Assembly: GCA_001790205.1 (NCBI GenBank)
Contig: MGBU01000059.1
Coordinates: forward strand, 1 to 38,351
From: Candidatus Rokubacteria bacterium GWA2_73_35
GTDB lineage: Bacteria > Methylomirabilota > Methylomirabilia > Rokubacteriales > CSP1-6
Length of the DNA stretch: 38,351 bases
Direction of reading: 5' to 3'
The notes under the pieces: model-generated
The model's input: the letters and a program-made list of their open reading frames with translations, nothing else
Databases searched by the model: none
Told to the model about the DNA's origin: nothing
In this document: positions 4,832 through 7,566 of the stretch, one piece after another
Layout of the letters: every line of letters starts with the position of its first letter
How positions within the stretch are numbered: the stretch's first letter is position 1
Position numbers and translations under genes: made by a program

Positions 4832-7566
4832 GAGCGGGTCACGATGTTGACGAGGCGGTTCGGGACGACGACGACCTTCTCGACGGTCCGCGCCGCCACC
4901 CACGGCCGCACCCGGTCGTCGCCGAGCGCGAGCTGGCGCACGCGGTCGTCGGCGGCGTCGACGTCCACGACCAGGCGCCCGCGCACCCTGCCGTCCACCT
5001 GCACCACGACGGTGACCTCCTGCTTGCGGAGGGCCTCGGGATCCGCGGCCGGCCACGGCTCGCGGAAGAGGCTCTCGGCGTGGCCGAGCTGCGCCCAGAG
5101 CTCCTCGGTCACGTGAGGGCAGAACGGGCCGAGAAGCAGCAGCGTCGTCTCGACCGCCTCGCGCAGGAGCGCCAGACGCTCGCCGTGCGGGACGCGGTCG
5201 AGCGACGCCGTCTCGAACGCGTAGAGCGCGTTCACCAGCTCCATGACCGCGCTGACCGCGGTGTTGAAGTGGAAGTCGTGCTCGATGTCGTCGGTGACGC
5301 GCACGATGGTCTCGTGGATCGTCCGGCGGAAGGCCCGGCCGGGGTCTATGGATGACGGGTGGGGCGAGGCGCCCCCCCCGTCGGCCCCCCCGGCTCGCGC
5401 GACGCCCGGCTCCCGGGGCGAGACGCCCTCGCGGTCGGCCCCCCCCGCTCGCGCGGCGCCCGGCTCCCGGGGCGAGACGCCCTCGCGGTCGGCCCCCCCG
5501 GCTCGCGCGGCGCCCGGCTCCCGGGGCGAGGCGCCCTCGCGGTCGGCCCCCCCGGGTCGCGCGGCGCCCGGTCCCGGGGGCGAGGCGCCCTTGCCGTCGG
5601 CCGCCGCGGGTCGCGCGGCGCCCGGCGCGGCCCGGAGCGCGTCGAGGTGGGCGAGCACGAAGCGCCACACGCGGTTCAGGAACCGCGAGGCGCCCTCGAC
5701 CCCGTGGTCGTTCCAGTCGAGGTCCTTCTCGGGCGGCGCGGCGAAGAGCGAGAACAGGCGCGCGGTGTCGGCGCCGAACGTGCGGATCAGCTCGTCGGGG
5801 TCCACGACGTTGCCCTTGGACTTGGACATCTTCGCGCCATCCTTGATGACCATCCCCTGGGAGAGGAGCGCCGTGAACGGCTCGTCCACCCGCACGAGCC
5901 CGAGGTCGCGGAGCACCTTCGTGTAGAAGCGCGCGTAGAGCAGGTGCAGGACCGCGTGCTCGATGCCGCCGATGTACTGGTCCACGGGCATCCAGTACTC
6001 CGCCGCGGCGCGGTCGAACATGCCGGCCTCGTGGCGCGGCGAGCAGTAGCGGAGGAAATACCAGGACGACTCGACGAACGTGTCCATCGTGTCCGTCTCG
6101 CGCCGCGCCCGGCCGCCGCACCCGGGACAGCGCGCGTTGACGAAGCTCGCGGCGTCGGCGAGCGGCGAGGCGCCCTTGCCCGAGAGCTGGACGTCGCGCG
6201 GGAGCACGACGGGCAGGTTCGCCTCGGCCTCCGGGACCATCCCGCACGCGTCGCAGTAGAGGACGGGGATGGGCGCGCCCCAGTAGCGCTGGCGGCTGAT
6301 GCCCCAGTCGCGCAGCCGGTAGTTCACCCTTGCCTCGCCGAGCCCGTGCTCGACGAGCCAGTCGACGGCCTTCCGCTTGGCCGCCGCGATCGTGAGGCCG
6401 TCGAGGAACCCCGAGTTGATCTTCACGCCGTCGCCCGTGTAGGCCTCACCGGCCCAGCCGTCGGGCCGCGCGACGGTCTCGACGATGGCGAGCCCGTGCG
6501 CCTTCGCGAAGTCCCAGTCGCGCTGGTCCTCGCCGGGGACGGCCATGATGGCGCCGGTGCCGTAGCCCATCAGCACGTAGTCGGCGATGAACAGCGGGAT
6601 CGCGGCCCCGCTGAACGGGTTCACGACGCGGGCGGAGAGCCTGAGGCCGCGCTTGGGTCGGTCGGCGGCGAGGCGCTCGATCTCCGACTCGCGCGCGACC
6701 TCCGCGCGGAACGCGGCGACGGCGGCGCGCTCGCGCGCGTCGCCGACGAGCTGGTCGACGAGCGGGTGCTCGGGGGCGAGCACCGCGTACGTCATCCCGA
6801 AGACCGTGTCGGGGCGGGTCGTGAAGACGCGGAGCGAGAGATCCGGCCGGCCGACCACGGGCAGGTCGAACTCGGCGCCCTCGCTCCGGCCGATCCAGTT
6901 GCGCTGCATCGTCAGCACGCGCTCGGGCCACCCCGGGAGGCGGTCGCACCAGGCGAGCAGCTCGTCGGCGTACGCGGTGATCTTGAAGAACCACCCGTCG
7001 AGCTCCTTGGGCGCGACCTCCGAGTCGCAGCGCCAGCACCGCCCGTCCTCGACCTGCTCGTTGGCGAGCACTGTCTGGCAGGACGGGCACCAGTTGACGG
7101 TCGAGCGCCGCCGGTACGCGAGGCCGCGCTCGAGCATCCGGATGAAGACGAGCTGCTCCCAGCGGTAGTAGGACGGGTCGCACGTCGCGAGCTCGCGCTC
7201 CCAGTCGTAGGAGATGCCCATCCGCCGGAGCTGCGTGCGCATGTTGTCGATGTTCTCGTAGGTCCAGATGGCGGGGTGCACGCCGTGCTCGATCGCCGCG
7301 TTCTCGGCGGGCAGGCCGAAGGCGTCCCAGCCCATCGGGTGGAGCACGTTGTAGCCGCGCATCCACTTGTACCGGGCGAGCAGGTCGCCGATGGCGTAGA
7401 CGCGGACGTGGCCCATGTGGATGCGGCCCGAGGGGTACGGGAACATCTCGAGGCAGTAGAACTTCGGGCGGCTCGCATCCTCGGTGACCGTGAACTGCTT
7501 GCGCTCCTCCCAGGCCTTCTGCCACCTGGGCTCGATCTCGCGGAAGGGGTAGCGGTCACTCGACAT
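4828..7566 (-). CDS. leuS: Leucyl-tRNA synthetase with an internal repeat insertion
   Basis: 912 aa with class I aaRS motifs (PYPSGRIHMGH, KMSKSKGN) and a LeuS-wide match. The segment between RVWRFV and RRTIHETI is expanded by repeats. Confidence 0.95.
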   Translation of the reverse strand: MSSDRYPFREIEPRWQKAWEERKQFTVTEDASRPKFYCLEMFPYPSGRIHMGHVRVYAIGDLLARYKWMRGYNVLHPMGWDAFGLPAENAAIEHGVHPAIWTYENIDNMRTQLRRMGISYDWERELATCDPSYYRWEQLVFIRMLERGLAYRRRSTVNWCPSCQTVLANEQVEDGRCWRCDSEVAPKELDGWFFKITAYADELLAWCDRLPGWPERVLTMQRNWIGRSEGAEFDLPVVGRPDLSLRVFTTRPDTVFGMTYAVLAPEHPLVDQLVGDARERAAVAAFRAEVARESEIERLAADRPKRGLRLSARVVNPFSGAAIPLFIADYVLMGYGTGAIMAVPGEDQRDWDFAKAHGLAIVETVARPDGWAGEAYTGDGVKINSGFLDGLTIAAAKRKAVDWLVEHGLGEARVNYRLRDWGISRQRYWGAPIPVLYCDACGMVPEAEANLPVVLPRDVQLSGKGASPLADAASFVNARCPGCGGRARRETDTMDTFVESSWYFLRYCSPRHEAGMFDRAAAEYWMPVDQYIGGIEHAVLHLLYARFYTKVLRDLGLVRVDEPFTALLSQGMVIKDGAKMSKSKGNVVDPDELIRTFGADTARLFSLFAAPPEKDLDWNDHGVEGASRFLNRVWRFVLAHLDALRAAPGAARPAAADGKGASPPGPGAARPGGADREGASPREPGAARAGGADREGVSPREPGAARAGGADREGVSPREPGVARAGGADGGGASPHPSSIDPGRAFRRTIHETIVRVTDDIEHDFHFNTAVSAVMELVNALYAFETASLDRVPHGERLALLREAVETTLLLLGPFCPHVTEELWAQLGHAESLFREPWPAADPEALRKQEVTVVVQVDGRVRGRLVVDVDAADDRVRQLALGDDRVRPWVAARTVEKVVVVPNRLVNIVTRS
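5361..5630. repeat. Five tandem 54-bp repeats inside leuS, in frame (18-aa units GAARAGGADREGVSPREP)
   Basis: The anchor ggggcgag recurs at 5361, 5415, 5469, 5523 and 5577, an exact 54-nt period. Units 2 and 3 differ at one base. The first and last units are degenerate. Confidence 0.9.

Follow-up and report, generated by a model that had tools for sequence, protein, structure and literature searches.

The 38,351-nt stretch analysed here, contig MGBU01000059.1 of Candidatus Rokubacteria bacterium GWA2_73_35 (hereafter the window), carries on its minus strand a leucyl-tRNA synthetase (LeuRS) gene, leuS, that contains five head-to-tail units of 54 bp. We confirmed that this array is real and forms an in-frame intragenic minisatellite. 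We consider it probable that the array is the amplified core of a palindromic element, normally intergenic, which resides in frame in a tolerant loop of the enzyme. The case for this origin is built on the geometry of the array, on a family of structured hairpin elements dispersed through related genomes, and on related inserts in the leuS genes of relatives that occur in two orientations and were duplicated independently. The source genome (G000) is a metagenome-assembled genome (MAG) of 281 contigs (3.5 Mb, 73% GC, 77% complete), of which the window is contig C59.

An in-frame minisatellite in leuS

Tandem Repeats Finder gave the array (5361-5626, period 54, 4.9 copies, 92% matches) a score of 425, the highest in the window, with the runner-up at 67, and a repeat search of the window found unit starts exactly 54 nt apart in four instances. 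Exact direct repeats inside the array are at most 43 nt long, and GC content reaches a maximum of 0.885 across it. Read on the minus strand, 4828-7566 translates without stops into a LeuRS of 912 aa, in which the period, being a multiple of three, produces 18-aa units (e.g., DREGVSPREPGAARAGGA) and leaves the frame open through all of them. The following features of the gene and its array are referred to below:

4828..7566, minus strand: leuS coding sequence, 912 aa, intact, with HMGH and KMSKS present and no stops
5361..5630, minus strand: tandem array of five head-to-tail 54-bp units, each coding for 18 aa; the inner units are nearly identical, the outer ones have diverged further
5403-5445 and 5457-5499: longest exact direct repeat, 43 nt; loss of one unit across it gives the 894-aa protein P0002
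5629..5700, minus strand: flanking helices, residues 623-646 (FLNRVWRFVLAHLDAL), from the predicted structure
5344..5628, minus strand: residues 647-741, without predicted secondary structure (AlphaFold2)
5275..5343, minus strand: residues 742-764 (RRTIHETIVRVTDDIE...), the helix that opens the anticodon-binding bundle, from Pfam and the predicted structure

A first-pass annotation of the window had already described five in-frame head-to-tail units of exact 54-bp period, and this geometry stands; its 18-aa repeat is DREGVSPREPGAARAGGA in another register, to which we add the strand that it had not given. It had also placed units 2 and 3 a single base apart, as is indeed the case for units counted from 5361 on the plus strand (other pairs differ by 5-10 bases), and had read the near-identity of units as a sign of recent expansion. 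We uphold this reading, since the inner units differ by 1-2 bases and the last rounds of duplication were therefore recent. Differences between coding-sense units are mostly non-synonymous (7 non-synonymous against 2 synonymous, read from the unit translations), which suggests relaxed constraint on the peptide. Coding-sense units 1 and 2 (window 5544-5600) are related by a compensated one-base shift, TCGCCCCCGGGACCG versus TCGCCCCGGGAGCCG, so homopolymer slippage has happened inside the array as well.

The place of the encoded enzyme among class Ia bacterial leucyl-tRNA synthetases follows from the catalytic motifs (HMGH at residues 50-53, KMSKS at 579-583), from the Pfam domains tRNA-synt_1 (PF00133), LeuRS editing domain (PF13603) and Anticodon_1 (PF08264, residues 745-868), and from an alignment with Thermus thermophilus LeuRS (1h3n, E = 6e-256) that reaches the end of the latter; its named homologues belong to Candidatus Rokubacteria / Methylomirabilota. 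The array lies between the FLNRVWRFV and RRTIHETI helices, where the alignment with 1h3n breaks at chain residues 718-723, and thus in the linker ahead of the anticodon-binding domain, where it had been placed at first. Elsewhere in the same alignment (window ~5830-5850, residues ~575-578), the chain jumps from residue 579 to 636 as the query passes from 575 to 578, and the window LeuRS is, judging from this gap, without the leucine-specific insertion domain.

A full-length AlphaFold2 model, built from a 50-sequence alignment of close homologues, is poor overall (mean predicted local distance difference test score, pLDDT, 54.6; predicted template modelling score 0.39), and we therefore take from it a single local statement: residues 647-741 are predicted as coil (pLDDT 22-32) between two confident helices, 623-646 and 742-764 (pLDDT 77-84). 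The first-pass annotation had spoken of a Gly/Ala/Pro/Arg-rich disordered loop, and the insert has this composition. It lengthens the loop from about 26 to 110 residues, and the 84 that it adds most probably form a disordered stretch with no effect on function, carried as a tolerated passenger.

A dispersed family of hairpin elements

A BLAST search with the 98-nt cassette retrieved more copies outside leuS, in four genomes. All share an architecture that begins with a variable yet complementary outer stem, a run of five to eight G and a short inner stem, and continues with a GAGAC-type loop, a run of five to eight C and a conserved box, CCYCCCCGG-TTCGCGC, which we also write as CCCCCCGG-TCGCGC. 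The copies often carry a second GC hairpin and are often arranged in tandem, 57-97 nt apart. From the element core we built a covariance model of 52 positions (R1), which matched 86 of the 101 genomes of the family to which the window belongs, with up to 57 copies per genome and about 990 in all. In the window genome it matched 13 times: one intact copy in leuS, three weakened array units and nine dispersed copies. The following elements lie within leuS:

5351..5402, plus strand: core of the dispersed hairpin element, intact and antisense to leuS (R1 64.5 bits), corresponding to the promoter-distal unit of the array; encodes ARAGGADGGGASPHPSS
5354..5382: G-run/C-run hairpin of 13 bp with a 3-nt loop, GACGGGTGGGGCG AGG CGCCCCCCCCGTC on the plus strand
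5408-5456, 5462-5510 and 5516-5564, plus strand: three degenerate element cores in the array (R1 27-34 bits), the right hairpin arm weakened

The structure of the element is supported by covariation. Across 51 non-leuS copies, 97.6% of the cells pair and compensatory changes occur in 8 of the 11 stem pairs; cells with double changes number 100, where shuffles give 27.8 +/- 3.7 and slid controls no more than 8, all of these pairing numbers leaning towards structure because the alignment was fitted to R1. None of the covariance models in Rfam 15 matched any of 10 copy-bearing loci at E <= 1. As for genomic context, we took the 30 best copies of two genomes (G094 and G074, a small sample), of which 29 lie outside a spanning coding frame, the exception being the one in leuS, and many of the non-leuS copies are positioned just after stop codons.

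Most of the inspected dispersed copies in the window genome belong to a diverged subfamily (GACGTCGGGGGGAGCG ... CGCTCCCCCCGAC, then ACCCCCC) that directly follows TGA stops. Each of the copies at C139:8955-9010, C55:3996-4051, C247:2606-2658, C203:4374-4429, C45:19988-20043 and C30:212-267 begins 2-4 nt after a TGA, which suggests either a terminator-like position at 3' ends or a preference for such sites as insertion targets. We also looked in this genome for dispersed copies of the whole 270-bp array and discarded the idea, having found weak, short GC-rich matches only.

A few individual copies deserve mention. The only non-leuS copy close to the leuS lineage (L049 on G066:C215, 1491-1542) is 86% identical to the leuS copy of the same genome and intergenic, between a 461-aa open reading frame (ORF) and a LivH-like permease; it may be secondary and leuS-derived. 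Because one copy in G066 lies between a LivH-like permease and an ORF that resembles solute-binding proteins, we considered a regulatory element tied to leucine, but rejected the idea, as this was a single case. At three further loci (L052 on G066:C228, L059 on G017:C39 and L060 on G064:C382) a copy lies on the opposite strand, 6-10 nt upstream of a trpF-like start (MPRVKICGIT), accompanied by partial tandem duplications of the 3' box.

Inserts in the leuS genes of relatives

The linker is about four times its usual length, much as the first-pass annotation had stated: the stretch from FLNRVWRFV to RRTIHETI measures 110 aa in the window and 24-28 aa in most relatives. Measured from FLNRVWRFV to RRTIHETIVRVT, it spans 45-47 aa in 24 of 30 genomes of the same order, against 130 aa in the window; it takes 75 and 69 aa in G003 and G002, the two genomes of the same genus with a readable leuS, each of which has its own twofold duplication of 15 aa, and 59-71 aa in three further genera. 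Among 120 database LeuRS of the clade, a single-copy APARAGGADGGGASPHPSS-type motif is widespread and was independently duplicated or triplicated in several lineages (P0006, P0010, P0016, P0025, P0030 and P0068), which makes the seed old and its expansions recurrent. The promoter-distal unit of the window array is this ancestral type, and ARAGGADGGGASPHPSS, encoded by the intact core, is the ancestral motif of the clade to which the window LeuRS belongs. The window array is the largest expansion among the leuS genes compared. To the choice, posed in the first-pass annotation, between a dynamic repeat and an old, fixed insertion, the comparison with relatives thus answers both: the seed is old and shared, and the expansions are lineage-specific and recurrent. 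In relatives, the insert was also inverted and lost repeatedly.

The inversions became apparent from alignments of the inserts. Those of L019 and L022, from two other genera, match the window and L016 inserts on the antisense strand with local scores of 64-75, against 24-32 on the sense strand and a maximum of about 40 in 300 shuffles. A 40-nt core pattern, allowing up to three mismatches, matched 12 of the 151 genomes of the order, all of them in the window's family (f1), with no match for the reversed-pattern control in the same 151 genomes. All but one of these matches lie in the leuS linker, seven antisense and five sense to leuS; G012 (loci L022 and L048) is both one of the five sense examples and one high-copy genome. 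G012, G096 and G070 are unpublished genomes, and our conclusions hold without them. Genera g15 and g39 each contain both orientations, and two members of one genus with opposite orientations can be aligned (90-100 nt, ~85-90% identity) only if the reverse complement of one insert is used. The cassette is bordered by GAGCTC palindromes in g15 (L043) and by inverted arms of ~21 nt in G064 (L040); no target-site duplication was recognised. The leuS copy is a palindromic repeat read through in frame in at least 12 genomes, and the combination of both orientations, inverted-repeat flanks and a preserved frame is found between species only. In addition, G003 and G002 share the DNA motif of the window (G run, CGCCTCG, C run) in another frame, reading GGRLAPP (L007) where the window reads GGGASPHP, a compensated frameshift in homopolymer runs.

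Whatever their genus or orientation, the copies in leuS share 84-88% identity among themselves, against ~65% identity between leuS and dispersed copies, including those of the same genome. This favours one colonisation followed by rearrangement in place over repeated insertions, and we infer that leuS was colonised a single time. On a LeuRS tree from which the linker had been removed, presence of the insert changes at least 13 times (137 rows) and its orientation at least 10 times (55 rows), with support of 98-100 for sister pairs of opposite orientation; these change counts are rough, because the tree was made with FastTree, the states come partly from peptide motifs and the proteins were sampled in order of their similarity to a query that carries the insert.

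A proposed origin of the array

The favoured course of events would be as follows. A GC-rich palindromic element of ~50-100 nt, made up of a G-run/C-run hairpin with a GAGAC-type loop, the CCCCCCGG-TCGCGC box and a second GC hairpin, would have entered leuS a single time, in frame, where the gene codes for a surface loop, and would have done so in an ancestor of a large clade of the window's Rokubacteria family. As Gly codons (GGN) and Pro/Ala/Ser codons (NCC) are reverse-complementary, such an element can be read through without stops in either orientation, and its product would be a Gly/Ala/Pro-rich coil that the loop tolerates. The hairpin and its homopolymer runs would then have made the site mutationally unstable. 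Relatives show independent tandem duplications, deletions back to a short linker, +1/-1 frameshifts that compensate each other within the G and C runs, and inversion of the whole ~80-100-nt cassette between short flanking palindromes, changes that presumably came about through slippage or template switching. In the window genome, a 54-nt segment with the element core would have been duplicated repeatedly, by replication slippage or unequal recombination, until five units were reached. The first-pass annotation had likewise invoked slippage or recombination in a recent expansion; the recency holds, whereas the seed would be the dispersed palindromic element and not native linker codons.

Copy number and assembly

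The 90% protein cluster of the window LeuRS has five members, three of which span the array. P0001 (912 aa, 78.7-kb contig) and the N-truncated P0122 (874 aa, 5.1-kb contig) have five units, identical in the latter, and P0002, recorded in the ENA from two contigs of the same species, has 894 aa and is identical save for exactly one unit fewer. The missing unit corresponds to a deletion spanning the 43-nt exact repeat, an outcome to be expected from genuine slippage or recombination as well as from a de Bruijn collapse at k <= 43; no 55-mer occurs twice in the array, which makes it unambiguous at k >= 55. The caution in the first-pass annotation that copy number might vary or be mis-assembled was therefore well placed as far as public assemblies go (five, five and four units in otherwise identical proteins), and the cause may be either strain variation or assembly collapse. 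Scanning JGI metagenome contigs for the pattern of the array units gave no matches, although records near the window genome may fall outside that set.

A MAG of the same genus offers a separate observation. At the end of its leuS contig (L036 on G001:C256, ~1540-1772) the downstream coding sequence is repeated in inverted form, joined precisely at the G-run/C-run hairpin, and this genome lacks the N-terminal part of leuS. The contig end looks like a fold-back assembly chimera, and its position exactly at the hairpin indicates that the site troubles assemblers.

Alternative explanations

Several points weigh against an origin in a mobile palindromic element. The exact hairpin GGGGGCG-N3-5-CGCCCCC occurs a single time in the window genome, presumably as the leuS copy, and this genome carries the diverged subfamily in place of the leuS-type hairpin. 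No transposase or other mobilising enzyme was identified: a search of five genomes, four of them at least 95% complete, for the Y1_Tnp/RAYT family (PF01797) found none, with controls scoring in 6 of 14 reference genomes, and the mobility of the family is therefore deduced from its dispersion only. The array overall folds no better than dinucleotide shuffles (z = +1.7 as DNA, +1.6 as RNA), so that a hairpin driving slippage is plausible as a conjecture only. The roughness of the change counts on the tree also matters here, as recombination of leuS between lineages could inflate the apparent number of flips, and the neutrality of the peptide is presumed.

These points have to be set against those that face the rival readings. 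An assembly artefact, in which the true copy number differs or short reads were mis-joined in a repeat of 88% GC, would explain why P0002 is shorter by precisely the unit that a de Bruijn graph would collapse over the 43-nt repeat; the fold-back chimera at the hairpin and P0124, an ORF that begins just past the array, fit as well. We nevertheless regard this reading as unlikely, given that common assemblers resolve an array in which all 55-mers are unique, that a five-unit protein was recorded from two separate contigs, that relatives have homologous inserts and duplications at the same site, and that the array holds the frame of an essential gene. Plain slippage of native linker codons, with no mobile ancestry and with a purely compositional similarity to intergenic sequence, seems very unlikely to us: the leuS copy shares 40-45 nt of identity, the conserved loop and the downstream CCCCCCGG-TCGCGC box with intergenic copies, its R1 score of 64.5 bits lies in the range of the best of these, and the reversed-pattern control had no matches. 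The low complexity of the sequence, the palindromic nature of Gly/Pro codon runs and the unexceptional folding of the array would all speak for it.

A third reading holds that the cassette is functional, that is, a selected loop or a DNA or RNA hairpin, be it as an intragenic inverton or copy-number switch, as a new interaction or tRNA-contact loop, or as an mRNA pause or stability element. Its persistence in leuS over many genera, the two orientations among close relatives with at least 10 flips, the short flanking inverted repeats (~21 nt in L040, GAGCTC palindromes in L043) and the survival of the hairpin upon inversion speak for such a reading, and recoding intragenic invertons are known in other bacteria (10.1101/2023.03.11.532203). 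On the other hand, the insert was lost repeatedly (at least 13 presence changes), the peptide frame differs between sister species, the differences between units are mostly non-synonymous, the two orientations are known here from different species and not within one population, and no invertase has been linked to the cassette, although no search for one was made. We thus find selection for function quite unlikely. Its boldest form, an active, copy-number-variable recoding inverton built from a family of structured repeats new to Rokubacteria and not described before, is a long shot; if it were true, single populations would carry LeuRS alleles that differ in the orientation and length of a surface loop or mRNA hairpin, with phenotypic consequence.

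Comparison with known systems

The closest analogue of a resident palindromic element in leuS are the Rickettsia palindromic elements (RPEs), which lie in frame in protein-coding genes and are read through as an extra, tolerated peptide; they are ~150 bp long, AT-rich, from Alphaproteobacteria, and found in dozens of different genes (PMC10969869). The Rokubacteria element resembles them as a dispersed palindromic repeat that is read through in frame, and tolerated, in a housekeeping gene. It differs in size (~50-100 nt) and composition (roughly 75-88% GC), in that a single intragenic copy, the one in leuS, stands among the best 30 of G094 and G074 instead of many in unrelated host genes, and in that the leuS copy was also inverted and tandemly amplified.

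Repetitive extragenic palindromic (REP) sequences and bacterial interspersed mosaic elements (BIMEs) are short imperfect palindromes, extragenic and present in many copies per genome, which are mobilised by REP-associated tyrosine transposases (RAYTs). The Rokubacteria element is likewise a dispersed, mainly extragenic, short GC-rich imperfect palindrome with compensatory stem changes, mostly just past stop codons and often tandem or clustered. Unlike them, it has a conserved 3' box after the hairpin, one copy within a coding sequence, and no cognate Y1 RAYT gene in the five genomes searched. Because it is abundant, covaries strongly in its stem, keeps a conserved loop and matches no Rfam family, and because those five genomes yielded no RAYT transposase, the dispersed element is a candidate new repeat or RNA family; our literature search returned nothing relevant on palindromic repeats in Rokubacteria or on tandem repeats in bacterial leuS.

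In Porphyromonas gingivalis, BrickBuilt is a minisatellite inside a MITE (miniature inverted-repeat transposable element; PMC4596501) and is strictly intergenic (PMC10969869). The leuS array would similarly have grown from part of a small non-autonomous repeat element, but it is in frame in an essential enzyme, with no target-site duplication recognised and no parent insertion sequence identified, although none was sought. Recoding intragenic invertons, as described by Chanin et al., invert within one population, which is attributed to invertases (10.1101/2023.03.11.532203). The leuS cassette has in common with them an intragenic segment with inverted-repeat flanks, both orientations and a frame kept either way; it differs in that its orientations are seen between species only, the repeats at its flanks are short, and nothing points to a recombinase. 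A last comparison concerns the enzyme, whose insert is a disordered, compositionally biased loop in a conserved aminoacyl-tRNA synthetase fold. Lineage-specific low-complexity inserts occur in aminoacyl-tRNA synthetases, for example in those of Plasmodium, and we know of none that derives from a dispersed structured repeat element.

Other repeats in the genome

The window genome contains a second dispersed repeat, in tandem arrays of 102-103 nt period with CATGGGGGGC...GCCCCCCATG-type hairpins on at least six contigs (C187:2619-3048, C103:1367-1683, C30:17072-17286, C132:5760-5957, C157:2326-2514 and C32:9813-10015). Two long arrays with a period of ~72-73 nt, ~36 copies and 64% matches (C233:13175-15868 and C129:20551-23245) look like clustered regularly interspaced short palindromic repeat (CRISPR) arrays. 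A spanning-ORF test for other in-frame tandem repeats was uninformative, as non-coding frames are also open at 73% GC.

Implications

Our findings have practical consequences for work on this clade. The site breaks or confuses short-read assemblies, as seen in the fold-back contig end of G001 and in the records of four versus five units, and the insert inflates the apparent divergence of LeuRS, which calls for caution in using leuS as a marker. More broadly, selfish palindromic repeats in frame within genes are best known from Rickettsia, and we found no description in the searchable literature of an in-gene palindromic element of this sort in Rokubacteria. If the favoured origin is correct, the same phenomenon would exist in an unrelated phylum that is free-living in soil and high in GC, where it would involve an aminoacyl-tRNA synthetase, an essential enzyme. 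It would also come with two added behaviours: a resident copy that was repeatedly flipped with its frame unbroken, since Gly and Pro/Ala codons are reverse complements, and one that can seed an intragenic minisatellite.

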